Of a stretch of 14,504 nt of DNA, positions 208 through 13,844 are shown piece after piece. The notes beneath the pieces are model-generated. The model saw only the letters and a program-made list of their open reading frames with translations. It was not told where the DNA came from and did not search any database. Each line of letters begins with the position of its first letter. Within the stretch, counting starts at the first letter, position 1. The translations under genes were made by a program, and so were the position numbers. The stretch lies in assembly GCA_039802265.1 (NCBI GenBank), contig JBDRWI010000059.1, forward strand, positions 1 through 14,504. The letters are read 5' to 3'. The DNA comes from a candidate division WOR-3 bacterium (lineage in GTDB: Bacteria > Hydrothermota > Tepidihabitantia > SM23-42 > JAOAFX01).

Positions 208-3030
208 ATGCGCTGGATATACTTAAGTCTTTTATTAGCGTTGTTATTTCCCTTGACTGCTACCACCATCTTCTCCGATGATATGACCAACTTCCCCACA
301 AACTGGACACTATCCGGTACATCCGGACAATACTGGACAAAGAGTTCTGCCCGGTATTACTCTCCTTCATATTCTGCAAAATGCACACCAAATGCAACTT
401 ATTCAAATAATGTTGATGTCTATATGGAAAGGTCATTCAGCCTTTCGGGTTACTCATCCGCAACATTAACCTTCTATATCTGGCAATACACCGAGGCCAA
501 TTATGACTTTGTCTATGTTCAATACTATACTACATCGTGGACAACTGCCTGGAGCAGAAGCGGCTCTTACCAGTCCTGGCAACAGATTTCAGTGAATATT
601 CCCACCAATGCAACAAAGATAAGATTCTGGTTCCATTCTGACTATAGTGTAACATACGAGGGCGCCTATATTGATAATGTTGTCCTTGATGCTACTGGTA
701 GTGGCACAACACAGAATGACGCAGGGAGTGGTGGGGATGCGGGGAATACCTTTGAGACCGCCTTATTAATTAATCCGGGTAATTATACCGGATATATGGA
801 TGGTTCAGACCGTGATGACTTTTATAAGTTCAATGTAACATCAGGGCAGGTAATTAAGGTAAAACTAACCCCTCCATCTTCTGCCGACTTTGACCTCTAT
901 CTATACAACCCATCAAATGTACAAAAGGCATCTTCGCTCAATGGCACGGGTCAGGTTGACTCGGTTACTTTCACCGCGGATGCCACCGGGCAGTGGCGGG
1001 CAAGGATGTATGAGTATTCAGGTTCAGGCACATATTCATTCAGCGTAACACTATCAAGCGGCGGTGGTGGCACAACCAAAGAGTGGACAATAATGGTCTT
1101 TATGAATGCTGATAATAATCTTGAAACATACGGAATCCAGGATTTTAATGAAATGGAGGCCGGCGGTGGTTCAAATTCCAATCGTAATGTTGTGGTTCAG
1201 ATTGACCGAATTCCTGGTTATGACAATTCAAACGGCGACTGGACTGGCTGTAGAAGATATTATGTTACATCGGACAACAATTCCACCACCATAAATTCTA
1301 CTTTGATTCAGGACCTTGGTGAGGTTGATATGGGTTCACCCACAACGCTTGTCCAATTCGTCCAGTGGGCAAAACAGAACTATCCGGCAAATAAGTATTT
1401 CCTTGTATTGTGGGACCACGGCGATGGGTGGTATCTTGCCAATCAACCAACCGATGCGATCCTCTTCAGGGGCTTTTCAAATGATGAAACCTCCGGAAAT
1501 GCGATTGATGTAGCAAATGGCGAGTTAAATAGTGCCCTTTCCCAGATAAAAACCACACTGGGAAAGAATATTGACTTAATTGGCTGGGACGCCTGTTTGA
1601 TGGGTATGTGGGAGGTAATGGATATTACAAAAAACTATGCAAATATCTTGATCAGTTCTGAAGAAACCGAAGGTGCTGCGGGCTGGTACTATACAAGTTT
1701 TTTAAATGACCTTAATAATAATCCGACGATGTCCGCACTTGATTTAGGCAAGGCAGTTGTCAACGGAACCTCAGGACAGTCAACCCTTGATGTTACAGAC
1801 CTTAGCCAGATTGCCAATTTAACCACAAAGATTGACGCCTTTGCTAATCAATTGATCCAGGCAAGGGCACAGGGGTATTCAAGCACAATCCAGACCGCAA
1901 GGAATAACACAAAACAGTTTTACTTGACTGCCCACATTGACCTCTATGATTTTGCCGATAAGATCTACAATTCAACGAGTCTGCCTGCTGCACTAAGAAA
2001 TGCCGCAACCGATGTCAAGAATGCAATCTTGAATGCGGTGAAGCTCTATAAAAATTCTTCAAGTTATTCTATGTGCCGGGGTGTCGCTATCTACCATCCA
2101 TCATCATCCTCAGGATATAACAGTTCCTATAACAGCCTGCCCATCACCTCAACAAAATGGGATGAGTATCTAAAGGGCGAATCCGGCGGTGGGGTTGATT
2201 ATACTGTCTCTCAGGTTACCTACTCTTGGGTCAGCACCTCCACCGCAACCGGAATCACTGGTGATGACCAGTCAAAGAACTTTACCCTTCCCTTCTCATT
2301 CAGCTTCTATGGCACAAGTTATAGTTCAGTAAATATCTGCTCTAACGGCTTTCTGTCATTTACCTCAACATCAACCGCATATAATCCTGCAACCATTCCC
2401 AATACTGCAGAACCCAATGCCCTTATTGCCCCTTTCTGGCGCGATCTAAACCCTGCCGGAGGTGGCACGATTACCTACTATTCAGGTTCTGATAAGTTTG
2501 TTGTTACCTGGAATTCGGTGAAGAACTATTCCAATTCCAATACCCAGACCTTTGAGGTAATTCTATATCCCAATGGTGAGATTGTATTCCAGTATAACTC
2601 AGTGACTAATGATGTAACGACGAGCCGGGGTATTGAAAATCAATCTGGGTCTTCAGGTAAGACAATCAATGCACCATCAAATGGAACTGCCTGGAAATTC
2701 ACACCAACAACTGGCTTCTATGACCAGGCAAACAGTGGTGATATGAGGATTCCAAAAGATTTATTAGGTGATAGATTAATCGTTTCTTATCCTAATCCTG
2801 CTTCTAACACACCTGTCCACTTTACTTACCGGTTAAACACAATTTCCGATGTAAAGATAAAAATCTTCAATGCACTGGGTCAGAATATATACACAATTGA
2901 TGAAGGAAGAAAAAAACCCGGTATTTATACAGCGACCTGGAATTATGAGAATCTTCCTGTTGGTATTTACTTCTATACATTCACAAGCGAAGGAGAAACA
3001 ATTAACGAGAAGATAATTATCTTGAAGTAG
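208..3030 (+). CDS. Secreted multidomain clostripain-family (C11) cysteine peptidase with T9SS-type CTD
   Basis: Signal peptide; jelly-roll/MAM-like domain (IRFWFHSDYSVTYEGAYIDNV); PPC-like domain (DDFYKF...ADFDLYLY); clostripain core (WTIMVFMNADNNLE, MGSPTTLVQFVQWAKQNYPA, WDHGDGW His404, DACLM Cys463); NIDO-like domain (LPFSFSFYG...SNGFLSF...IAPFWRDL); CTD (YPNP...IFNALG...LPVGIYFY...EKIIILK). Confidence 0.9.
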   Translation: MRWIYLSLLLALLFPLTATTIFSDDMTNFPTNWTLSGTSGQYWTKSSARYYSPSYSAKCTPNATYSNNVDVYMERSFSLSGYSSATLTFYIWQYTEANYDFVYVQYYTTSWTTAWSRSGSYQSWQQISVNIPTNATKIRFWFHSDYSVTYEGAYIDNVVLDATGSGTTQNDAGSGGDAGNTFETALLINPGNYTGYMDGSDRDDFYKFNVTSGQVIKVKLTPPSSADFDLYLYNPSNVQKASSLNGTGQVDSVTFTADATGQWRARMYEYSGSGTYSFSVTLSSGGGGTTKEWTIMVFMNADNNLETYGIQDFNEMEAGGGSNSNRNVVVQIDRIPGYDNSNGDWTGCRRYYVTSDNNSTTINSTLIQDLGEVDMGSPTTLVQFVQWAKQNYPANKYFLVLWDHGDGWYLANQPTDAILFRGFSNDETSGNAIDVANGELNSALSQIKTTLGKNIDLIGWDACLMGMWEVMDITKNYANILISSEETEGAAGWYYTSFLNDLNNNPTMSALDLGKAVVNGTSGQSTLDVTDLSQIANLTTKIDAFANQLIQARAQGYSSTIQTARNNTKQFYLTAHIDLYDFADKIYNSTSLPAALRNAATDVKNAILNAVKLYKNSSSYSMCRGVAIYHPSSSSGYNSSYNSLPITSTKWDEYLKGESGGGVDYTVSQVTYSWVSTSTATGITGDDQSKNFTLPFSFSFYGTSYSSVNICSNGFLSFTSTSTAYNPATIPNTAEPNALIAPFWRDLNPAGGGTITYYSGSDKFVVTWNSVKNYSNSNTQTFEVILYPNGEIVFQYNSVTNDVTTSRGIENQSGSSGKTINAPSNGTAWKFTPTTGFYDQANSGDMRIPKDLLGDRLIVSYPNPASNTPVHFTYRLNTISDVKIKIFNALGQNIYTIDEGRKKPGIYTATWNYENLPVGIYFYTFTSEGETINEKIIILK

Positions 3031-3188
3031 AAAGAACTTCAGAATATAGTTAAAACCAGAAAGGCTTATGGTAATGCGAAAAAGGAATAAAAATGTTGAT
3101 TAGAAAAAGGGCTATAAGATTGATTGGTGATTTCAAAAATGCAGTTGTACCATTTATTGTAATTAAAATATTATTAAATTTCGTAAGT

Positions 3189-3279
3189 TTTATCCTCCCC
3201 CTTGATGGGGGAGGATAAAGGTGGGGGGTGAAAGAATAATTACCCCTCTACCTTACCCTCTCCCAGCAAGGGAGAGGGA
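3189..3279. repeat. Composite palindromic intergenic (REP-like) element
   Basis: Perfect 13-bp stem TTTATCCTCCCCC/GGGGGAGGATAAA (3189-3219) and 9-bp stem CCCTCTCCC/GGGAGAGGG (3256-3278), joined by imperfectly complementary arms. Confidence 0.75.
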
Positions 3280-3299
3280 TTTGATATATCCGAGGAGGA

Positions 3300-4118
3300 A
3301 TGATGAAGGGGAGTATCTATGTGGCGGGGATTTTATTGGTGTTATTCTACTTTGCACCAGCCCAGGAGTATGAAATCATAAGGACAAAACTTACGGGTAC
3401 CGGTGTTCAGGCAGACTCAGCGTGGTGGATTACTGGATTCCAAAACGAAACCGATGGCGAGTATGTCTATTTAAGACCAATCCGTCAGGGTGGAGTCTTG
3501 CTCCAGCCAATATTTAAGAGCAGATTGGCAGGGATCGGAGTAGATGCCTTTATTACCTCCGGTGACACGCTCGTCGGATTTTCAACCTCAGGACCTGATG
3601 CCAATGGTTATGTATATCTAAATGCCATAATGAAAAGTGGTGCGACTCAGGCAATCTTTAGAAGCAAATTAGAAGGGTGTGATGTGCAGGATGTTAGTCC
3701 GGTTGCCGGGCAGTGGATAAACGAATTCAGAACATCCGGTCCTGACCCCGATGGCTATGTCTATCTCAAGGTAGTACGTAAAACAATTGGCATAGAAGAA
3801 GAGAAGAGAAAAGACAGTGAGATGGCTTTGAATGGTTTTACATTCGCCCTGAATAGCCCCGCACCAAATCCATTTATAAACAAGACCAGAATATCATATT
3901 CAATTGCCAAACCCTGTAAAGTGGAGATAAAGGTTTTTGATATAACGGGTAGAGTGGTCAAGACCTTAATAAACAAAAATTCGCAAAATCCAAATGTTTA
4001 TACTATTTTGTGGAATGGAGAAGATAACGAGGGGCGCAGATTGAATTCAGGTATATTTTTTATCAGGATGAAGGCGGGTGATTTCTCTGCGACAAAAAAG
4101 GTGATGTTGTTGAAGTAA
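3300..4118 (+). CDS. Secreted triple-repeat protein with T9SS/FlgD-type CTD ('adapter' 1); paralogue of 9732..10523
   Basis: RBS GAGGAGG (ATG 3303 is better spaced than 3300); signal peptide; three ~45-50 aa repeats each ending YVYL; GIEE linker; CTD (APNPF...VFDITGRVVKTL...WNGEDNEG...SGIFF...TKKVMLLK). Confidence 0.85.
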   Translation: MMKGSIYVAGILLVLFYFAPAQEYEIIRTKLTGTGVQADSAWWITGFQNETDGEYVYLRPIRQGGVLLQPIFKSRLAGIGVDAFITSGDTLVGFSTSGPDANGYVYLNAIMKSGATQAIFRSKLEGCDVQDVSPVAGQWINEFRTSGPDPDGYVYLKVVRKTIGIEEEKRKDSEMALNGFTFALNSPAPNPFINKTRISYSIAKPCKVEIKVFDITGRVVKTLINKNSQNPNVYTILWNGEDNEGRRLNSGIFFIRMKAGDFSATKKVMLLK

Positions 4119-4131
4119 AAATGGGGGAACA

Positions 4132-6441
4132 ATGAGCAAATACATTAAAACTTTAATCATTGGTTGCCTTTTGGTAAATTTGTTATATGCCCCTTCTGAT
4201 ATCACTAAGAAAGGGAATGAAGCGGCGGTCTCCAAGGAGATAGGCGAACAGGGCCGTGCCTGGCTTGAGGCACAAAGGGGCTGGATTGAATCCGGTACCA
4301 ATTTCTATCCCTACAGCACCGGTATAAATGTTGGTATTGGCACAACCTCACCGGCGTACAAACTTGATGTCGCAGGCAATTCAAGAATACAGGGTAATTT
4401 ATATATAAACTCATGGCCGATAAGTGTCACATCTGCACCCCCGGTTGGTTATGTCTTAAAATGGAATGGGGCTGCGTTTATTCCCTCAATAGATGAAAAT
4501 AGTGGTGGAAATGTAAGTGGCTCAGGCTCACCAACCCAGATTGCATTCTGGACAGGAACATATACGATTAGCGGTGATAATAATTTATGGTGGGATAATA
4601 CAAATAAGAGACTCGGGATAGGAATAAGTGCACCAAATTGCAATTTACATGTTGTTGGCAAAGGGAGGGTTATATACACTCCTGCTACAAATGATACTGC
4701 ATTTGTTGGAAAAACAAGTGGCACTGAGGCAAGAAGGGGAGTCTATGGTGAATGCAATGCCTATGATGGTGCCGGGGTTGGTGTTACCGGCGTTGGTGGC
4801 TTCTTTGGAACCGCCGCATGGTATGCACAAAGTAATGGAAGTGTTGGTGGTGTCCTGGGAACCTACTGGGGTGAAGGTGTCTGGGGACTTTCTGATGCGA
4901 CCTATTATGGATATACCGGAGTCCTTGGCGAAGGCTGGAATGGTGCAGCAGGGGTGACCGGATGTGCCAATGGACTCTGGATGTACTATGCTGGTGCCGG
5001 GGTTGGTGGCTTCAGCACCGATGTCGGAACATTCGGCTATGGAGATGCAACATCATTGAGTTTCGGCGTCTGGGGGAGGAGCGATGCTACAGATGGTATC
5101 GGCACTTATGGTAGTAGTGCTGGTGCTACAATCTATACTCCGCCTGCTGGTCAGGATGCTGGACTTTTTTCAGCAGGTCAATACTATGGACTTTATGGTA
5201 TGGCACAGAGGAATACCGATTATGGAATTGGGGTTGTTGGCCTTGGCTTCAACACAACAACCTTGACCTATGTGAATGGTGCGGGTGTGGTTGGATGTGG
5301 CAATGTTGGTGTTGCGGGTTGTAAGGATCAGTATACCTACGGAATCCTTGGCTATACTACAACCCAGGCAAACTATTTTTATCATAATGAACAGTCAACA
5401 ACCGACCAGCAGTCTGCAATCTATGCCTATAGAACAAGGTCTGCCCAGAACGACGGAACTGGTTATGGTGTCTATTATACGAATCAGGCAATTCAGGGCG
5501 CTAATTTTTGGGGCGATGTGTATACATTCGGAATATCCGGTCATAACTATAATGATTATACCCGGTGTGGTGGTGTGCTTGGTGCACAGTGGGGTGGTAC
5601 ATACTGGGGTTCTCTCGGTTATAAAAGTTCAGCAAGTTTGACCTATGGTGGTTATTTTACGAGCCATACCGATGGCTCGGGCAAGCAGGGAATTGGAATC
5701 GGTTCCTATGGTGATTTAATGGGTGGCTGGATTAAGGGTGATGAATATGGTTTATATACCGCAGGCAGACGCTGTGGTATTTATGTTGATGGAAATGGAT
5801 ATGCAAGGGGTTATCTCGCAACAATCCACGAGGAGAATAATCAGGTTGATGTCCTCTATGCCCTGACCGGCACCTCGGTTAATGTTCTTACCTATGGTAG
5901 GAGCAGACTGACGAATGGCAATGCGGTAATAAATTTTGATGAGAGTTTCAGAAGCGCGGTCTCCGAAAGAGAGCCGGTCACGGTGATTATAACGCCAATC
6001 GGAGATGGTAATGAGATCCGTCTATCAAATATTTCCAAAAATGGCTTTGTGGCATTTGAATCTAATGGTGGCAGGTCAAATAATGAATTCTGCTGGATTG
6101 CGATTGGCAAGAGAAAGGGTTATGAAGATATTCAGGTTCCTGAAGAAATAATCAAATCTGATTTTGATGATAATATGGCTCAGGTTGCATTTGATGAAAA
6201 TAATCTCAGTGGTAGTGCAAAGGGGATGTGGTATGATGGAACTTCTTTAAGATTTGGCAAACCACCAGCCGCACCGGTTAAAAAACCCCCAGAATCTGCA
6301 AATTTTGCCAAAATAACGGAACTCCAGAAGTTAACAAAGAAACTTGAGAATTTAAAGAAAGATATAAAGAGACTGGAAAGGGATATTAAAAGAAGTATAA
6401 GCGATGCCGAAAAGTCGGATGTAGCAAAAAGGAGTAAATAA
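4132..6441 (+). CDS. Secreted Gly-rich tail-fibre/adhesin-like protein ('fibre' 1) with C-terminal coiled coil and no CTD
   Basis: Signal-like N-terminus; NVGIGTTSPAYKLDVAG and RLGIGISAPNCNLHVVG fibre-type motifs; long GVxG-type Gly/aromatic repeats; C-terminal domain shared with 8633..9688; heptad segment LQKLTKKLENLKKDIKRLERDIKRSI. Confidence 0.8.
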   Translation: MSKYIKTLIIGCLLVNLLYAPSDITKKGNEAAVSKEIGEQGRAWLEAQRGWIESGTNFYPYSTGINVGIGTTSPAYKLDVAGNSRIQGNLYINSWPISVTSAPPVGYVLKWNGAAFIPSIDENSGGNVSGSGSPTQIAFWTGTYTISGDNNLWWDNTNKRLGIGISAPNCNLHVVGKGRVIYTPATNDTAFVGKTSGTEARRGVYGECNAYDGAGVGVTGVGGFFGTAAWYAQSNGSVGGVLGTYWGEGVWGLSDATYYGYTGVLGEGWNGAAGVTGCANGLWMYYAGAGVGGFSTDVGTFGYGDATSLSFGVWGRSDATDGIGTYGSSAGATIYTPPAGQDAGLFSAGQYYGLYGMAQRNTDYGIGVVGLGFNTTTLTYVNGAGVVGCGNVGVAGCKDQYTYGILGYTTTQANYFYHNEQSTTDQQSAIYAYRTRSAQNDGTGYGVYYTNQAIQGANFWGDVYTFGISGHNYNDYTRCGGVLGAQWGGTYWGSLGYKSSASLTYGGYFTSHTDGSGKQGIGIGSYGDLMGGWIKGDEYGLYTAGRRCGIYVDGNGYARGYLATIHEENNQVDVLYALTGTSVNVLTYGRSRLTNGNAVINFDESFRSAVSEREPVTVIITPIGDGNEIRLSNISKNGFVAFESNGGRSNNEFCWIAIGKRKGYEDIQVPEEIIKSDFDDNMAQVAFDENNLSGSAKGMWYDGTSLRFGKPPAAPVKKPPESANFAKITELQKLTKKLENLKKDIKRLERDIKRSISDAEKSDVAKRSK

Positions 6442-6459
6442 AAAAGATTAATCAGAGAA

Positions 6460-6518
6460 ATGCAGGTTTTAACTGCGGACAAATTTCTATTCAGGTATCC
6501 GCAGGCTTTAACCTGCAT
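6460..6518. repeat. Imperfect inverted repeat (degenerate REP pair or RNA hairpin)
   Basis: ATGCAGGTTTTAACTGCGGA (6460-6479) is complementary to TCCGCAGGCTTTAACCTGCAT (6498-6518) apart from the central mismatches. No U-tract follows. Confidence 0.6.
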
Positions 6519-6560
6519 ACAATAAGAATAGTGTCTTGCTCGTAAAAGGAGGTGGTGGTT

Positions 6561-8543
6561 ATGTTTGTTCCAATCTTATGTTTTGTTATATCAATTTCGG
6601 GTCAGATACCAGAAGAGAGCCATTCGGGCTCAATCACCTTCTTCGTACGGGGTATAGATAATGGTTATGGAATTCAGACTGATGTAGAGGTCTATAAAGA
6701 TCATCAACTGTTCTCATCACTGAAGACCGATGAGGGAGGGTATCTGGTCTTCAGAAACATTCCCTACAAATACGAATTCATATTCTCGGCATCGGGCTAC
6801 GATAGATTAAAGACATCTTTTGTAATTGAAAAGGGAAAAGACCTTGAAGTCTGGATTCATCTCACACCAGCGGAATATAAGATTCCAGCAATACCCGAGC
6901 CATTAAAGGGGTATGCTAAAGAAGATGTGGTCTTGTTATATGGATATGTTGTTGACAGAACTTCCGGCAAACCAATAACTGGGGTAAGGATAAAGACTGA
7001 AAAGTCAAAACTCCAGACCGGTAGTGATTCTGAAGGCTTCTATTACCTTTTACTCCCAACCTCCGATTTTTCGCCAGAATTGCCTCCATTAAGCGAAATA
7101 ATCATTTTTGAAATTGAAGGTTATAAAACTTACCAATGTAATAAGCCGCTAATCGCTGGCATCTGTCTTTTAAATGTGAGTATGGAAAAAGGAACTGGAA
7201 TTATTGAAATGGACGACAAACAGGGTATCTATTCAGACAAACCCGAAGGGATAAATAGAATTGACAAACAAGATGACTGTCCAAATTGTAAAAGAAACAA
7301 TTATCAGAGCATTATCGCGGAAACCCGGGCGGTTTATCTTGACCCGCCACCAATAATCCGTGTTGGAACAAACTGCACTGGCTATAACTGTTCAAGTGTT
7401 GAGGTGATGACCCTTGAGGCCTATGTGCGCAGTGGCATAGACGATGAATGGATTGCCAGCTGGCACTATAATTCACTTCGTGCCGGCGCAGTCCCCTATC
7501 GCAGTTATGGTGCCTGGTATGTCTATCATCCAATTGCCCAGAATTATGACATTACCAACAATACCTACTGTCAGGTGTGGAACCCTGACCAGTATCAGAG
7601 TTGTATAAATGCGGCGATATATACCTCAGGGATAATGATTGAGTATAACAGTGCAGTTGCCCGTTCCGAATATTCGGCTGAGAATAATGATTGTGGTTGT
7701 GGTAATGGCTATTCAGGAACCGGCTCTACCTGGCCCTGTATCAGTGATAATGTCTGTTCTGGGCAGAGTTGTTATGGACATGGCAGGGGTATGTGCCAGT
7801 GGGGTTCGCAGCGATGGGCAAATAATCAAGGCTATAGCTGGTACTGGATAAACAACCACTACTATAATCCAGGTTCATATTATCTATCCACACCAATGTA
7901 TATTACCAATGCCTGGCCCAGCCCGAATAATATCGCCCCTACCGAGACATTTACTATCTATCTTAATACCTATAATGGTGCTGAGGATAACCATCCTAAT
8001 ATAATGATTGGCGCCTCATTATATAATGGTAATTACTACAGCGACCCAGCAAATGACAAAAAGGTTACCATAAATATCGGCAACGATTCAGAATCCCGAA
8101 TTTTTGTCGTTCCAGCAGGTACTCCTTTTGGCACCTATGACCTCCTTGTCGCCTTATGGTTTGATGTGGATGAAAATAATCAGATAAACAGTGGAGACTT
8201 TCCCCTTTATCTTACCACGCTCTATGATGCGATAACCATCTCACCCGAAGCAATTACTGAAGTATCTCAACATCCCATTCCTGGACGATATTCCCTTAAA
8301 ATCTTGCCCAATCCTATGTTACACTCGGGAAAAATAGAATACGCGGTTGTGAATGGTGGAAATGTCTCAATAGACCTGTTTGATTTGAACGGCAGAAGAT
8401 TAAAGAGATTGATAAATAAGACCCAAAATCCGGGTAATTATGAGATTATCCTTGATGCTTCAGAACTACCAAAATCGGTCTATTTCATTGAATTCACCAC
8501 CGAGGATTATCGGGAGATAAAGAAGTTGGTGAAGATAAGGTAG
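6561..8543 (+). CDS. SpoIID/LytB-domain protein with carboxypeptidase-regulatory-like beta-sandwiches and T9SS-type CTD
   Basis: AGGAGG at 6547-6552 favours ATG 6561 over GTG 6552. Prealbumin-like domains (TDEGGY...SASGY; GYVVDRTSGKPITGVRI...SDSEGFY); SpoIID motifs LEAYVRSGIDDEW, SLRAGAVPYRSY, YCQVW, GHGRGMCQWGS, INNHYY; CTD LPNP...LFDLNGR...IKKLVKIR. Confidence 0.85.
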   Translation: MFVPILCFVISISGQIPEESHSGSITFFVRGIDNGYGIQTDVEVYKDHQLFSSLKTDEGGYLVFRNIPYKYEFIFSASGYDRLKTSFVIEKGKDLEVWIHLTPAEYKIPAIPEPLKGYAKEDVVLLYGYVVDRTSGKPITGVRIKTEKSKLQTGSDSEGFYYLLLPTSDFSPELPPLSEIIIFEIEGYKTYQCNKPLIAGICLLNVSMEKGTGIIEMDDKQGIYSDKPEGINRIDKQDDCPNCKRNNYQSIIAETRAVYLDPPPIIRVGTNCTGYNCSSVEVMTLEAYVRSGIDDEWIASWHYNSLRAGAVPYRSYGAWYVYHPIAQNYDITNNTYCQVWNPDQYQSCINAAIYTSGIMIEYNSAVARSEYSAENNDCGCGNGYSGTGSTWPCISDNVCSGQSCYGHGRGMCQWGSQRWANNQGYSWYWINNHYYNPGSYYLSTPMYITNAWPSPNNIAPTETFTIYLNTYNGAEDNHPNIMIGASLYNGNYYSDPANDKKVTINIGNDSESRIFVVPAGTPFGTYDLLVALWFDVDENNQINSGDFPLYLTTLYDAITISPEAITEVSQHPIPGRYSLKILPNPMLHSGKIEYAVVNGGNVSIDLFDLNGRRLKRLINKTQNPGNYEIILDASELPKSVYFIEFTTEDYREIKKLVKIR

Positions 8544-8632
8544 CACAAGACAGAACAGGAGGTGATAATTAGAGTATTTATATCGTAGCGAGAGATTGAA
8601 TTTTGAGCAAATTATAGAAAATAGGAGGTTCT

Positions 8633-9688
8633 ATGAACCGCTACATCAAATTCTTAATCATCGGTTGCATATTTGCAACCCTTTTATATGCACCACCTCC
8701 AAGAGAGGAAAAGGGGAAACTTCAAAAAGATATGAAGGATAGTCGTATCTGGGTAGAGGGTCAGCGCGGATGGTCTGAGAATGGCACATACTTATGGACA
8801 TCAGTTTCGCCACTTCCCACATACAATGTTGGTATTGGAACTGCAAGCCCACTCTATACACTCCATGTCTCAGGTGTTTCTTACGGTGACTATAACGGCA
8901 CAACACCTATCGCAGCCGGGGTCTATGGTATGGGAAGTCACAACAATACAACTACATCTGCCAAAGGTATAATTGGTGCGGTCAATCAACCACCATCAAC
9001 ATATCTTGGAATTGCTGTAAGTGGATTTGGCAATTCTAACGGCGCACTTGGTGGCTGGTTCTGGGGAAATAATATCCAGTCCGCAACCGGATTCTTTTGG
9101 GGTGGCACAGGTGTTATCGCGGTAGGAGGTTGGGCAGCAATCATAGGAAATACGAACGACCCCGATGGCTGGGCAGTTACTGGCTATTCCAATGGAAGTG
9201 GTGATGCCTGTGGACTTTACGGGCAAAATGATTATTCGGGAGTTTATGCATATATTGCTGATTCCTGGGGCTATGGAATTTATTCCAATGGGGTAAAATC
9301 AACTGTGATGCCCACCTCAAGGGGTGAAAAGGTTTTATTCTGCCCGGAAAGTCCGGAGGTGTTATTTGTTGACTACGGTACCGGGAGGTTAAACAACGGC
9401 AGGGCTTATGTAGCACTTGACCCTACTTTCCTTGAGGTAGTTACCATTGACCGCACTCATCCTTACAGGGTTGTAGTAACACCTACCGAATTATGCAATG
9501 GAGTATATGTGATAAAAAGGGACAAGGGATTTGATGTAATAGAAACCAATAATGGCACAAGTAACGCAACATTTGATTATCAGATTGTAGCATACAGAAA
9601 GGGCTGGGAAGATAAACGCTTTCCTGATGGTAAACCAAGGCGGCCACACAACAGGTCATACACCAATCAAGTTGAATTAAAAAGATAA
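8633..9688 (+). CDS. Shorter Gly-rich fibre-like protein ('fibre' 2), paralogue of 4132..6441, no CTD
   Basis: RBS AGGAGG; same N-terminus (YIKxLIIGC...LLYAP...WxExQRGWxExGT); NVGIGTASPLYTLHVSG; Gly-rich repeats; C-terminal domain GVKSTV...CPESPE...YGTGRLNNG...VTP...RKGWED. Confidence 0.8.
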   Translation: MNRYIKFLIIGCIFATLLYAPPPREEKGKLQKDMKDSRIWVEGQRGWSENGTYLWTSVSPLPTYNVGIGTASPLYTLHVSGVSYGDYNGTTPIAAGVYGMGSHNNTTTSAKGIIGAVNQPPSTYLGIAVSGFGNSNGALGGWFWGNNIQSATGFFWGGTGVIAVGGWAAIIGNTNDPDGWAVTGYSNGSGDACGLYGQNDYSGVYAYIADSWGYGIYSNGVKSTVMPTSRGEKVLFCPESPEVLFVDYGTGRLNNGRAYVALDPTFLEVVTIDRTHPYRVVVTPTELCNGVYVIKRDKGFDVIETNNGTSNATFDYQIVAYRKGWEDKRFPDGKPRRPHNRSYTNQVELKR

Positions 9689-9731
9689 ATAGGAAAACTA
9701 CGAATAATTTATTGGCAATAAAGGAGTGCAA

Positions 9732-10523
9732 ATGAAGATGATAATAATAGGATTGACAATTTTCTCTTTCTTACTCAATGCCCAGAACGAAATATTCAAG
9801 GCAAAATTAAAAGGGATTCAGATTGATGAATATAACCCTGGCTATGAGATAGACTCTCTTACTGTATATCAGAGTGGTGAGTGGGTCTATATGAGGGCAT
9901 ACTCCGCCGCTGGATTTGGGGATATACTGGCAACCAAGTTAAAAGAGACATCACTGCAGACGGCAAAACCAGCCGTAGGGTATTTCACGGGATTTACTGC
10001 CTCAAGCCCCGGTGATGGATATATCTATTTGACTGCAACAAGTGATGGTGGATTCAATCAGGACATTATAAAGGTAAAATGGTCGGGAATTGGAGCTCAA
10101 ACCTTTACTGCCCCTTCAGGTCAGTGTATCAGTGGGTTTGTTAAATCGGGACCGGATGCGGATGGTTATGTTTATCTTCTCGTGAATACGGGTTTTATAG
10201 GAGTTGAAGAAGAACAGAAAGACAGGGAAGCAGGTATTTATAAATTTGGTTTTGAACTAAGGGTAATCGGTCCCAATCCAACCCGAGAATATACAAAGAT
10301 ATTCTATAGCATTCCTAATCATTCATCAGTTCGTCTTGAAGTGTATGATATCTCGGGGCGGCTCGTAAAGAGACTCGTTGACTCCTTTCAAAACAGGGGC
10401 AGATATAACCTTTCCTGGGCTTGTGTTGATGAAAATGGAGAGGCATTACCCGATGGTGTCTATCTTGTAAGACTAACGAATGGAAAACAGGTTGCAACCG
10501 AGAAATTACTGTTGTTAAAGTAA
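9732..10523 (+). CDS. Secreted triple-repeat protein with T9SS/FlgD-type CTD ('adapter' 2)
   Basis: AAGGAG at 9721-9726 favours ATG 9732; signal peptide ending LNA|Q; three repeats ending GEWVYM, GDGYIYL and SGPDADGYVYL; GVEE linker; CTD GPNP...VYDISGRLVKRL...LPDGVYLVRL...EKLLLLK. Confidence 0.85.
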   Translation: MKMIIIGLTIFSFLLNAQNEIFKAKLKGIQIDEYNPGYEIDSLTVYQSGEWVYMRAYSAAGFGDILATKLKETSLQTAKPAVGYFTGFTASSPGDGYIYLTATSDGGFNQDIIKVKWSGIGAQTFTAPSGQCISGFVKSGPDADGYVYLLVNTGFIGVEEEQKDREAGIYKFGFELRVIGPNPTREYTKIFYSIPNHSSVRLEVYDISGRLVKRLVDSFQNRGRYNLSWACVDENGEALPDGVYLVRLTNGKQVATEKLLLLK

Positions 10524-10603: not shown

Positions 10604-10627
10604 TAAATGATTACCCTGGTTATGTTT

Positions 10628-10658
10628 TTGTATAGGAATTTGAAAAATTCCTATACAA
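10628..10658. repeat. Perfect 14-bp inverted repeat (operator or hairpin)
   Basis: TTGTATAGGAATTT-gaa-AAATTCCTATACAA. Confidence 0.7.
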
Positions 10659-10693
10659 TGGTAATGAAATTTTTCATTATAGTTAAAAAAACC

Positions 10694-10795
10694 ACAAGAT
10701 ATTCAGGGGAGGATGATATGAAAATGGTCTCCGCACAAAGAGACGGTTTGCTATATAGCGGGGGTTTTCAGGGGGTATCCCCCTGAATATCTTGT
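10694..10795. mobile_element. 102-bp MITE-like or structured element with perfect 16-bp terminal inverted repeats
   Basis: ACAAGATATTCAGGGG (10694-10709) / CCCCTGAATATCTTGT (10780-10795); internal hairpin TTCAGGGGG-tat-CCCCCTGAA. No obvious target duplication. Confidence 0.5.
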
Positions 10796-10804
10796 AACTT
10801 CAAT

Positions 10805-11371
10805 GTGCTGCCTGTAAATAATATTACCTTCCACCCTGCTCATTGTGATACAGTCTTTACCCTGGTGGGTGCGGGTTCTTATAGTGATGCATTATATCGC
10901 TCTATTGATACCGGCATTACCTGGCAATTTGTTGATTGGTTCGTCTGTCCCTATTCCATGACAATCTGTGCCTTTCCATATATCATCCTTCTTGGCTGTA
11001 TAGATGATTATGGTATATACAAGAGTGAACAGGAGGACTTTGGGGAGACCTGGGAACATATCGGACGGACTGATAATATGCCATACTCTCAAATCACCTG
11101 TGTGGCGATAGTCGAAGAAAATATCATCTATGCAGGATACTACGATGAGAAAGAGAAAAGTTGTGGTATCCAGATGACAACCAATGGTGGTAGGGATTGG
11201 CGAAAATTGCCGATAATTTTAGATGATGATTTGATTGATATTTTAGTAGATTCAGGAGAGCCAAAAAAATTTTATTTAGCCATTAAATCCAGCCCAGGTA
11301 TAAAATTTTTTGAATATAACATCTCCAATTTAAATAAATTAGAAAATAAGAAAGTGGTAATTAAGAGATGA
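10805..11371 (+). pseudogene. N-terminally truncated Asp-box (BNR) beta-propeller gene; partial paralogue of 12831..13844
   Basis: No RBS or signal peptide, and it starts mid-blade just after the 102-bp element. Asp-boxes SIDTGITW, EDFGETW, TTNGGRDW. The C-terminal ~110 aa closely match those of 12831..13844. Confidence 0.6.
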
Positions 11372-11425
11372 GTAATCTTTCCGGTCTTGACATGGATTTA
11401 ATTTTTCTTATAATATCAATAGGAG
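11033..11425 (+). repeat. Diverged direct repeat, copy 1 (copy 2 at 13506-13891)
   Basis: Identical 22-mer GAGGACTTTGGGGAGACCTGGG, then shared AAATATCATCTATGC-GGATACTACGATGAGAAA, and ATGAGTAATCTTT...CTTGA...AATAGGAG past the stop codon. Confidence 0.85.
11387..11414 (+). promoter_or_regulatory. sigma70-type promoter for 11431..12822
   Basis: Exact TTGACA (11387-11392), 16 bp spacer, exact TATAAT (11409-11414); RBS AGGAG 11421-11425. Confidence 0.8.
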
Positions 11426-11430
11426 ATTAG

Positions 11431-12822
11431 ATGTTTATTATCTTCTTTCTTATTCTTCAAGATACCCTAATCCGCTGGGAGCCAGAGGTGAATCTAAGCC
11501 AAGATACCTCATATAACTTTTATCCATGGATTGAATGTTTGGATAGTTTTGTCCATATCGTATGGAACTCGCAAAATGGTTACGTGTATTATCGTCGTAG
11601 TACAGACCTCGGTGTTTCTTGGGATAGCGTGGTGCAATTGAACGATTCAGCAGTCACTATAATTTATCCGCAAATCGCCTTATCGGGCAGTTTTGTGCAT
11701 TGTATTTGGTGGGAGTTTGCTCAAGACGGTAGGTTGCGATATAGAAGAAGTTTAGATAGAGGTCAAACCTGGGATACTTTATGTATTTTGGGGCCTTCTG
11801 CCCACCGCCATTTTATTATAGCAAAAGGATTGGATGTTTATGTAATTACAGGTAAAAGTAGCCCTGATTTGGGTCTCTTTTTATTGAAAAGCACCGACGG
11901 CGGCTCCACCTGGTCGTCATGTCATAAAATTTCATCAAGACTGCCTGATTACGAGGTTGGTTTCTTTATAAATGAAAAATTTCACCTCGCTTTTACAGAT
12001 GACGCCGATTCAGTCTATTATATGTATAGCACTGATTTGGGTGAGACCTGGTCTGAGCCATTACAGATTGCGGTTAATCCCGATGCCCCAAAATGTCATA
12101 ATATCGTTGCCAATGATTATGGTTATTTATTTATTCCCTGGGAGGACAATAAATATTCTGGTGGTGTACTCGATGATGTGCTTCTGCGAAGGTCAACGGA
12201 CAATGGTTTAACCTGGCTACCCGAGCAACAGATAACCAATCATCATCTGGTTGATATGTGGGACGATATCTGCTGTGCGGATTCAGATGTCTATTTGGTC
12301 TGGCCTAAGGATGGCTCTTCTCAAGAGGCTTTGCAATTCCGTGCCTCCACTGATATGGGTGAGACCTGGTGGCCGATTGAGGATATATGTAACAATTTGG
12401 TTTTTGATGGTTCAGTTGCCACCGATTTTCCTAAAATTCATATCGTTTGGAGAGATCGACGCAGCTTTCCCTCAGAAATCTACTACCGTCGTGGCACGAG
12501 GCTACCGGTAGGGATTGAGGAGACAAGGAGACAGAGAGAGAAGGAGACAGGGAGAATTGAGGTTTGGCCAAATCCTTTCAGGAATTACTGCGTGATTCAG
12601 TATGCACTAAGCAGTAAGCACTATGCACCAGGGGAAGTAGTTAGTGTTAAGATGTATGATGTTTTAGGAAAGGAGGTGATGTCTTTGAGACAAAGAGACA
12701 AGGAGACAGAGGGACGGGGAGAGATAAGGATAGAGACAAAAGGTCTGCCCCCGGGTGTTTATTTTGTGCAGGTTGAATCAGGAAGTATTAGTGAGATTAA
12801 AAAAACAGTAAAAATAGAATAG
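11431..12822 (+). CDS. Asp-box/BNR-repeat (sialidase-like fold) beta-propeller protein with T9SS-type CTD
   Basis: Six Asp-boxes (STDLGVSW, SLDRGQTW, STDGGSTW, STDLGETW, STDNGLTW, STDMGETW) alternating with VHIVW-type strands; GIEE linker; CTD WPNPF...MYDVLGKEV...LPPGVYFV...IKKTVKIE. The N-terminal hydrophobic leader is unusually short. Confidence 0.85.
   Translation: MFIIFFLILQDTLIRWEPEVNLSQDTSYNFYPWIECLDSFVHIVWNSQNGYVYYRRSTDLGVSWDSVVQLNDSAVTIIYPQIALSGSFVHCIWWEFAQDGRLRYRRSLDRGQTWDTLCILGPSAHRHFIIAKGLDVYVITGKSSPDLGLFLLKSTDGGSTWSSCHKISSRLPDYEVGFFINEKFHLAFTDDADSVYYMYSTDLGETWSEPLQIAVNPDAPKCHNIVANDYGYLFIPWEDNKYSGGVLDDVLLRRSTDNGLTWLPEQQITNHHLVDMWDDICCADSDVYLVWPKDGSSQEALQFRASTDMGETWWPIEDICNNLVFDGSVATDFPKIHIVWRDRRSFPSEIYYRRGTRLPVGIEETRRQREKETGRIEVWPNPFRNYCVIQYALSSKHYAPGEVVSVKMYDVLGKEVMSLRQRDKETEGRGEIRIETKGLPPGVYFVQVESGSISEIKKTVKIE
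12520..12555 (+). repeat. Degenerate 8-bp tandem repeat (GAGACARR x4.5) in the CTD linker
   Basis: gagacaag gagacaga gagagaag gagacagg gaga. Confidence 0.75.
12601..12628 (+). repeat. 7-bp tandem repeat (TAWGCAS x4) inside the CTD
   Basis: tatgcac taagcag taagcac tatgcac. Confidence 0.7.
12687..12722 (+). repeat. Second degenerate 8-bp GAGACARR tandem array inside the CTD
   Basis: gagacaaa gagacaag gagacaga gggacggg gaga. Confidence 0.7.
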
Positions 12823-12830
12823 GAGGAAAA

Positions 12831-13844
12831 ATGCTTAAAAAATCAATAATAACAATCACTGCACTGGGGATGTCTGTATTCCTCAGTGCCCAGATACCAC
12901 ACTGGGAGTTTTTCAATGGTCCCTGGTGTGCACAAAGGATTGTGGACATGGGGATGAGTTATGTGAGTGTTACAGCCCCTTATCCACCCCCGGTTATATA
13001 TGCGGTAAATGAGAATACCTGTCTTGCGAAGACAACCAATGATGGTTATACCTGGGAAATTCTTCCTAAAGGTCATAATTTTGCCGAGGCGATAAAGTGT
13101 GTAGCAGCGCATCCAACAAATCCCAATATTGTATATAAAGGTATTACTGGAAATACCTCTCAGACAGGCATAATGAAGAGCACCGATGGTGGTTATAATT
13201 GGGTTTGCGTCAATAATGGTTTACCAGATGAAATTCATCCCTCAAAACTCGGGATATTTCCGCATCCAGGGTATTATGACTATTTGCTCTTAGGAATGAG
13301 TAGCGACCAGCAAATATATGCGGGTTATTCATTGTATAGAACTACAGATGGTGGCAATACTTGGGAACATTATTCTTTTCCTTGGGAACCACATTTTCTC
13401 AACATCACCGACTTTTCGTTTGATCCGACGGCACCGGAAGTAGTCTGTTTCTCTGCCGATTATTCCTCAGACCCTAACAATGCCTATCGTGGTGTGTGGT
13501 TGAGTGAGGACTTTGGGGAGACCTGGGTTCAGATTGGTAAACCGGGCACCGGTCCTTATTCAATGCCCAATCCTGATGTCACCTGTTTGGCAATAGGAGA
13601 TAGAAATATCATCTATGCCGGATACTACGATGAGAAAAAGAAAATCAGCGGGATTCAACAAACAACCGATAGCGGTAGGAATTGGAGAAAAATGCCAATA
13701 ATTTTGAAAGATATTTTAATTGATATTTTGAATGAACAAAATAAAATTTATTTAGTTATCAAATCATCCAAAAATATAAAATTTATTGAATATAATATTT
13801 CCAATTTTAGCAAGATAAATGAGAGAGTGGTGATTGAGAAATGA
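12831..13844 (+). CDS. Secreted Asp-box (BNR; YCF48/VPS10-like) beta-propeller protein without CTD
   Basis: RBS AGGAGG overlaps the upstream TAG; signal peptide ending LSA|Q; Asp-boxes TTNDGYTW, STDGGYNW, TTDGGNTW, SEDFGETW, TTDSGRNW. Confidence 0.85.
   Translation: MLKKSIITITALGMSVFLSAQIPHWEFFNGPWCAQRIVDMGMSYVSVTAPYPPPVIYAVNENTCLAKTTNDGYTWEILPKGHNFAEAIKCVAAHPTNPNIVYKGITGNTSQTGIMKSTDGGYNWVCVNNGLPDEIHPSKLGIFPHPGYYDYLLLGMSSDQQIYAGYSLYRTTDGGNTWEHYSFPWEPHFLNITDFSFDPTAPEVVCFSADYSSDPNNAYRGVWLSEDFGETWVQIGKPGTGPYSMPNPDVTCLAIGDRNIIYAGYYDEKKKISGIQQTTDSGRNWRKMPIILKDILIDILNEQNKIYLVIKSSKNIKFIEYNISNFSKINERVVIEK

Follow-up and report, generated by a model that had tools for sequence, protein, structure and literature searches.

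The stretch of DNA considered here (the window) is 14,504 nt of contig JBDRWI010000059.1, from a bacterium of candidate division WOR-3, and the part under study is 3300..10523 on the + strand. There lie two genes encoding phage-like fibre proteins, each beside a gene for a small protein, called here an adaptor, that has three internal repeats and a type IX secretion system (T9SS) C-terminal domain (CTD). A first-pass annotation, made from the letters of the window, had described two CTD-less fibres each adjoining a three-repeat CTD protein, and the coordinates of the open reading frames (ORFs) together with domain searches confirm that description. I will argue that the pairs are instances of a real and conserved module of two genes, apparently undescribed, whose candidate interface is sharply delimited. 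All ten genes of the window run in the same direction. The five ORFs of the studied part, each preceded by a purine-rich stretch resembling a ribosome-binding site, and their main features are these:

3300..4118, + strand: adaptor 1 (ad1), 272 amino acids, with a putative signal peptide, a three-repeat predicted β-prism and a type-A CTD (3864-4106)
3372-3776, + strand: the three repeats of ad1 (residues 25-69, 70-117 and 118-159), opening with I-[FL]-[RK]-[TS]-[KR]-[LW]-x-G-x-x-V-Q
4132..6441, + strand: fibre 1 (fib1), 769 amino acids, with a signal peptide, a WLEA motif, two GIGT units and no CTD; within it also a Gly-rich shaft, a tailspike-like C-terminal domain and a coiled-coil-like tail (by eye)
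4261..4272, + strand: candidate docking motif W-L-E-A of fib1, residues 44-47
6552..8543, + strand: a SpoIID/LytB-domain protein (SpoIID, PF08486) with its own CTD
8633..9688, + strand: fibre 2 (fib2), 351 amino acids, with a signal peptide, a WVEG motif, one GIGT unit, a Gly-rich shaft and no CTD
8750..8761, + strand: candidate docking motif W-V-E-G of fib2, residues 40-43
9362-9592, + strand: C-terminal domain of fib2, resembling that of the Pam1 tailspike
9732..10523, + strand: adaptor 2 (ad2), 263 amino acids, with a putative signal peptide, three repeats (9789-10187) and a type-A CTD (10269-10511)

The second adaptor gene lies 3' of its fibre gene, the opposite of the usual order of adaptor then fibre. 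All four junctions among the five genes are bridged by contigs from two sequencing runs of one study, which speak for gene order only, since both runs possibly derive from the source sample.

The two adaptors are 35% identical over 263 columns. Both end in a type-A CTD (TIGR04183/PF18962), scoring 41.3 and 44.3 bits against the TIGR04183 cut-off of 23, and both begin with a basic start, a hydrophobic run and an A-Q cleavage-like site, which by eye resemble a signal peptide. The repeats are 42-48 residues long (about 46), three per protein. In ad1 all three pairs of repeats outscore 2000 of 2000 shuffles; in ad2 the score of pair 1-2 was reached by 2/2000 shuffles, that of pair 2-3 by 0/2000 and that of pair 1-3 by 312/2000, so that the last pair is not significant alone. 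Recent tandem duplication as the origin of ad1 and ad2 was rejected, because the two are not sisters in the tree.

The two fibres have a common N-terminal stretch (48% identity over 88 columns) and related C-terminal domains (31% over 144 columns), and domain searches found no match to a CTD family in either. A profile of the N-terminal stretch matches solved structures of mosaic adhesive trimer (MAT) fibres from Bdellovibrio (8ond, E 3.9e-9; 8ojn, 9.5e-6; 8ol4, 1.9e-5). NCBIfam gave no match to the MAT N-terminal domain (NF053851) in fib1 or fib2 at E<=0.1. The S74 domain (PF13884) is not in either fibre and is present in the partners of other adaptors at loci L021 and L022, and a PDB sequence search with the whole of fib2 gave no match. 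For the C-terminal domain of fib2 the model is of high confidence, and it matches the corresponding domain of the Pam1 tailspike 7eea (Z 9.1, root-mean-square deviation 1.8 Å, 29% identity over 70 residues); phage depolymerases match too. The kinship to trimeric fibres supposed at the outset is thus borne out, and homology suggests that fib1 and fib2 are homotrimers.

In order to assess the pairing, neighbourhoods were read for all 40 adaptor ORFs found outside the window's own genome (G000), 4 of which have no downstream gene in view, leaving 36. The next gene, on the same strand, carries [WF][LIVTA][EQD][GAP] near its start in 29 of the 36, a count that is not blind, because this relaxed pattern was framed after some loci had already been inspected, and 2 more have divergent forms (FIAT, YIKG). 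Whether adaptors mostly stand without an adjacent fibre was tested, and they do not: 31 of the 36 have a partner, although these pairing counts include kin (21 of 110 genera) and are not independent. The relaxed pattern is found in 48 of the 1710 ORFs of the window's own genome, and a strict form, W[LIV]E[GA][TQ], in 4 of them. The strict pattern had been set earlier, from the window plus the seven loci read first, and it is true of 5/29 later loci (against the background of 4/1710) and of both metagenome loci obtained afterwards. Pattern scans of genome and metagenome collections proved insensitive, with 2 loci each, both genome loci being contigs of G049. Chance adjacency in a genome rich in CTDs was rejected, because the class of partner is specific.

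What defines that class is short. Aligned over 39 partners, the four motif positions are W, F or Y in 39, I, V, L, T or A in 39, E in 34 and G in 35, with flanks that are little conserved. The regions after the motif are unrelated to one another: some are S74 fibres, others are Lcl_C or Gly_rich_2 and others belong to no family, with lengths of ~150 to 900 amino acids. Many partners are short tip-like domains. No GIGT unit is present in 22 of the 39, so that the NVGIGT-type repeat, first taken to be the partners' common feature, gives way to the N-terminal [WFY]-Φ-E-G. Since only the motif is common and the downstream domains vary, pairing tracks four residues and not the fibre shaft. The absence of a CTD also extends to the partners: none of 35 gives a match (best E 0.96; 5 are edge-cut).

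An I-I-G-C stretch is present at residues 9-12 in both fibres of the window, as might be expected if they were lipoproteins held by their own Cys, with the adaptor unneeded. This I regard as very improbable, as a lipobox-like stretch occurs in only 2 of 33 partners in relatives, and the hydrophobic run extends beyond the Cys to L-Y-A-P, which relatives lacking the Cys have kept.

Turning from the partner to the adaptor, the AlphaFold2 model of the repeat domain is all-β, with four strands per repeat and a predicted local distance difference test (pLDDT) score of 91.9. In structure it comes closest to β-prism I proteins (Z 8.0, root-mean-square deviation 3.6-4.6 Å, 113-119 of 142 residues, 9-12% identity); the ten best structures are all jacalin-type lectins or their kin, at middling Z. 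The β-prism I fold has an internal three-fold axis. The repeat domain is therefore predicted to be a pseudo-three-fold β-prism I, and the pseudo-three-fold shape that had been guessed for it from its repeats holds at the level of the model. Comparison with Atlas models of jacalin-like proteins gave template modelling (TM) scores of 0.56-0.61. Foldseek found no match for the model at E<=0.001, nor was there a structure match in a viral fold library at that threshold; a PDB sequence search with the adaptor gave no match, and an Atlas feature search gave nothing usable. Pfam offered no convincing family among 31 adaptor members, and jacalin (PF01419) matched 0/31 at E<=1.

This is a small family. 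In 1.84 billion representatives it makes up 45 clusters at E<=1e-10, mostly of 240-390 amino acids, with a CTD or FlgD-type tail on most of the cluster members scanned. Representatives matching more weakly than about 1e-10 were excluded, along with P0143 and P0146, which like P0148 proved on checking to be unrelated repeat proteins. Of the 271 genomes of the phylum, 34 carry the domain, spread over 21 of 110 genera, and two different profiles gave the identical 34. A close homologue of ad1 bears a WOR-3 label. A CTD is found at E<1e-3 in 30 of the 40 adaptors. Each repeat has two basic positions, which are R or K in 22-30 of 31 aligned adaptors, and the basic pair together with a Gln is retained in all three repeats. 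At the level of sequence, each repeat's final hairpin is G-[YW]-V-Y-L and has no Asp; jacalin-type sugar-binding loops are of the forms GG and GxxxD. Two adaptor genes elsewhere are damaged, being frameshifted or remnants (L072:6766-7475 in G171 and L082:319-540 in G165), and at L072 the partner is intact. A lone metagenomic ORF, P0010, joins adaptor repeats to the C-terminal half of a fibre; it has neither motif nor CTD, and I treat it as the product of deletion or misassembly rather than as proof of fusion.

One divergent clade of β-prisms (L073, L077, L081 and L083, four members with support 100/100) has no fibre partners. In it 22 of 24 repeat positions that are otherwise basic are, by eye, non-basic, and since this is a single clade, the loss of basic residues alongside the loss of partners counts as one evolutionary event. 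P0147, P0149 and P0150 appear to belong to it as well. Members of the clade have the domain fused to long proteins, one of them an RHS-repeat protein, and the clade is possibly an adhesive ancestral form.

The window's own genome also encodes a second type of small CTD protein, with a head of ~54 residues in which three segments led by Tyr can be made out by eye; a CTD often comes after the head. The loci of this module are these:

G000 C3:21937-23849 (with the next two, L088-L090): head protein beside a fibre
G000 C61:11488-13338: head protein beside a fibre
G000 C80:1-1895: head protein beside a fibre
L117-L146: further loci of the module

This head is unrelated to the β-prism (hhalign probability 1.2%). 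The C3 and C80 fibres start with a YQG domain, that of C80 being weakly like NF053851 Bdello_MAT_N (E 1.1e-6). Among the 271 genomes of the phylum the head occurs in 97, a MAT_N-like domain in 85 and both in 66; only 5 of the 34 β-prism genomes also hold either one, a figure for which kinship inflates any test. A YQG neighbour was seen at 10 of 30 head loci and a WxEG neighbour at 0/30 (most of the others are flank-cut), and a YQG start was found in 0/39 of the β-prism's partners. Each of the two adaptor types is thus accompanied by its own N-terminal code, and in the loci read the two did not cross. Two further observations concern these fibres and their like. The C61 protein has a match to PamT at E 0.0067, and the orphan fibre at G000 C6:26763-28607 (L087), conserved in G001, as well as that at L104, has a degenerate WLEP and lies 3' of a different small CTD protein, which is perhaps a third type of adaptor or perhaps there by chance.

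With nearest folds that are lectins, the β-prism could be a free-standing adhesin for sugars, linked to the fibre by nothing more than co-transcription, the WxEG serving a processing protease, a shared outer-membrane receptor or the like. The related clade without partners, found also inside unrelated long proteins, fits this account, and so do three genomes, considered below, that have motif-type fibres and in which no adaptor was found. I nonetheless judge it rather improbable. Identity to the top lectins is as low as noted above, none of the members examined matches the jacalin family, and co-transcription leaves unexplained why the β-prism chooses WxEG and not YQG, why the other head makes the opposite choice, and why basic residues were lost alongside partners.

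The reading I favor, and hold to be probable, is that the β-prism docks three copies of the motif at the base of the fibre trimer in a stable 1:3 complex, and that the CTD ties the assembly to the cell surface by way of the T9SS. By this scheme Sec would carry both fibre and adaptor over the inner membrane, the fibre would trimerise, and its three motif copies would dock into three equivalent sites on a single adaptor, the Glu of each motif meeting the conserved Arg or Lys of a repeat. The adaptor's CTD would then go through SprA/PorV, and the adaptor would remain on a PorV-like barrel or be coupled to the surface by a PorU-like enzyme; the fibre might pass through the pore behind the adaptor or be captured outside. 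The motif would be a portable address, by which one family of adaptors could display unrelated tips, be they S74 fibres or Lcl_C, Gly-rich or tailspike-like domains, including those of fibres encoded elsewhere in the genome.

A different stoichiometry would alter this scheme: chains might be exported 1:1 and trimerise outside, or one adaptor might gather up to three different motif proteins. Some adaptors (L019, L022, L079 and L080) are indeed followed by two different motif-bearing genes, and in ad2 repeat 1 has diverged from repeat 3. Still, the conservation of the basic pair and the Gln through all three repeats argues against either variant, and so does the nature of the partner domains, which are of kinds that form trimers (Lcl_C and S74 proteins trimerise). 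I consider these variants quite improbable.

For the 1:3 complex to reach the surface, the host should have a T9SS. Its genome, 89% complete, has a SprA (330.8 bits against a cut-off of 200), 15 PorV-family matches, at least 150 CTD matches and a PorU-like gene, which together make an export route for type-A CTD proteins plausible; the T9SS-like machine that the first-pass annotation had presupposed for the adaptors is found to this extent. Matches to the PorZ profile are confined to the CTD region. GldM and GldN were not found in this genome at its 89% completeness, in a search with no positive control (GldK and GldL were not searched), and the system is possibly motor-less.

Several observations weigh against the docking scheme, beyond the limits on the counts given above. 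The PorU-like gene, at E 3.1e-21, falls under its cut-off. No motif-bearing gene lies 3' of 5 of the 36 adaptors (L061, L066, L073, L077 and L082); these are a 73-residue remnant, a CTD-less variant, two members of the divergent clade and L061, where an edge-cut fibre lies two genes upstream of the adaptor. The monomer model of fib2 has low confidence over its N-terminal two thirds, so that the case for a trimer is one from homology; poor modelling of the shaft as a monomer is common for intertwined trimers. Proteins labelled Bacteroidota with the same C-terminal domain start with QVGIGT and have neither motif nor CTD, and such fibres may therefore have other ways out. Most directly, all 16 of 16 further motif-type fibre loci, chosen as not known to be paired, are without an adjacent adaptor, and in the window's own genome the motif-type fibres of C14 and C6 stand alone. 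Pairing is accordingly tight from the side of the adaptor (31/36) and is not one-to-one, orphan motif-bearing fibres being common. Finally, of five genomes with such fibres that were not used in making the fibre profile (G142, G144, G123, G126 and G148), G142 has an adaptor and G144 an adaptor fragment at a contig end, and no adaptor was found in G123 (90% complete, 360 contigs), G126 (77%) or G148 (96%, 30 contigs). The readable fibre of G148 carries the degenerate motif WIQP.

For 12 of the 16 orphan loci the genome has an adaptor elsewhere, and for 1 it has a fragment of one, as would fit the use of adaptors in trans. The same abundance of orphans suits a further alternative, in which binding is transient: the adaptor would be a trimerisation template or escort that is then shed, one adaptor could serve many fibres catalytically, and lasting anchoring or export would fall to something else. 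There is a precedent in phage T4, whose gp38 is described as a folding chaperone of gp37 released after assembly (PMC12892980). I think this alternative unlikely. The export tag, kept by three quarters of the adaptors (30/40), would be needless for a periplasmic chaperone, some partners have an S74 chaperone of their own, and the tandem arrays of G146, in which one adaptor is repeated for each fibre, suit a stoichiometric role.

The remaining features of the window bear on the surroundings of the module. The SpoIID/LytB protein is a bystander cargo: its gene adjoins a pair also in the same-genus genome G001 and is beside an adaptor in no other locus seen. The gene at 208-3030 encodes a protease of the clostripain family (C11) that begins with a MAM-like domain and carries a CTD; this gene is upstream of the adaptor in G001 too. 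The intergenic stretch 3031-3300, compared by blastn with the genome, gives 34 rows at E<=1e-5, and it contains a GC-rich hairpin at 3256-3278. Promoter matches are fewer than the mean of shuffles (15 against 21.0), and 0 reads mapped from about 12% of one raw RNA run, a sample too limited to speak on expression. Downstream, a ~175-bp element occupies 10620-10795, just 5' of a truncated BNR-like ORF at 10805. The genome has over a dozen near-identical copies of it (95-99%), and its depth in the run contigs is high; it is probably a non-autonomous mobile repeat. Contigs of both runs skip 2496 bases (11106-13603), fusing the paralogous BNR-type ORFs 10805-11371 and 12831-13844, which is either strain variation through recombination or a difference of assembly.

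The closest known relatives of the fibres are those of Bdellovibrio bacteriovorus. MAT fibres are likewise secreted, phage-like GIGT fibres whose N-terminus is constant and whose tips vary, some being of the S74 form and some not, and the surface element bound by their N-terminal domain is stated to be unidentified (PMC10769870). The window fibres differ in having the four-residue motif in place of a match to the MAT N-terminal domain, and here a candidate anchor gene with a T9SS tag adjoins the fibre. The ~54-residue head, for its part, is a candidate anchor of the sort missing for MAT fibres.

A second comparison is with the type-B cargo of the T9SS and its partner PorP-SprF, also an adjacent pair, one member of which needs its cognate partner in order to be displayed at the surface (PMC12398890). 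There the cargo has a type B CTD of its own and the partner is a membrane barrel; here the cargo is CTD-less and the partner is a soluble protein with a type-A CTD. Neither fibre matches a CTD family, and there is no PorP gene among the ten proteins of the window.

As to symmetry, one PAAR monomer caps the trimeric spike of VgrG. So too, a gp38 monomer of the T2/S16 type caps the gp37 trimer, the pairs showing cognate specificity (PMC12892980). Both caps occupy the distal tip, where they bind or pierce, whereas the adaptor would sit at the N-terminal base and carry an export tag. The predicted fold is held in common with jacalin-related β-prism I lectins (PF01419) and VMO-I (Z 8.0); unlike jacalins, the adaptors give no sequence match to that family, have their own repeat consensus with basic residues, and have a peptide as proposed ligand. 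The module as proposed resembles gp38 and PAAR in symmetry and type-B/PorP in gene logic and is a member of neither. I found no description of the β-prism/WxEG module in the literature, judged by titles and the openings of abstracts and without supplements, and no paper combining WOR-3 with type IX secretion.

Cargo of the T9SS is defined by a C-terminal tag of its own, and there can be none on a fibre whose C-terminus is taken up by a tip domain or a chaperone. It is possible, though doubtful, that there is a third class of cargo, in which tagless trimers hitch-hike through SprA on three-fold adaptors by a peptide code, and that WOR-3 evolved this twice from unrelated parts, the β-prism with WxEG and the ~54-residue head with MAT-like YQG, in largely complementary lineages. 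The interface at issue is small, a 140-residue domain against a four-residue motif, and the partnerless clade and the YQG fibres provide natural negative controls. If the scheme is true, the repertoire of T9SS cargo would be widened, surface fibres of uncultured lineages could be predicted by rule, and the four residues may amount to a minimal tag for the surface display of any trimer.

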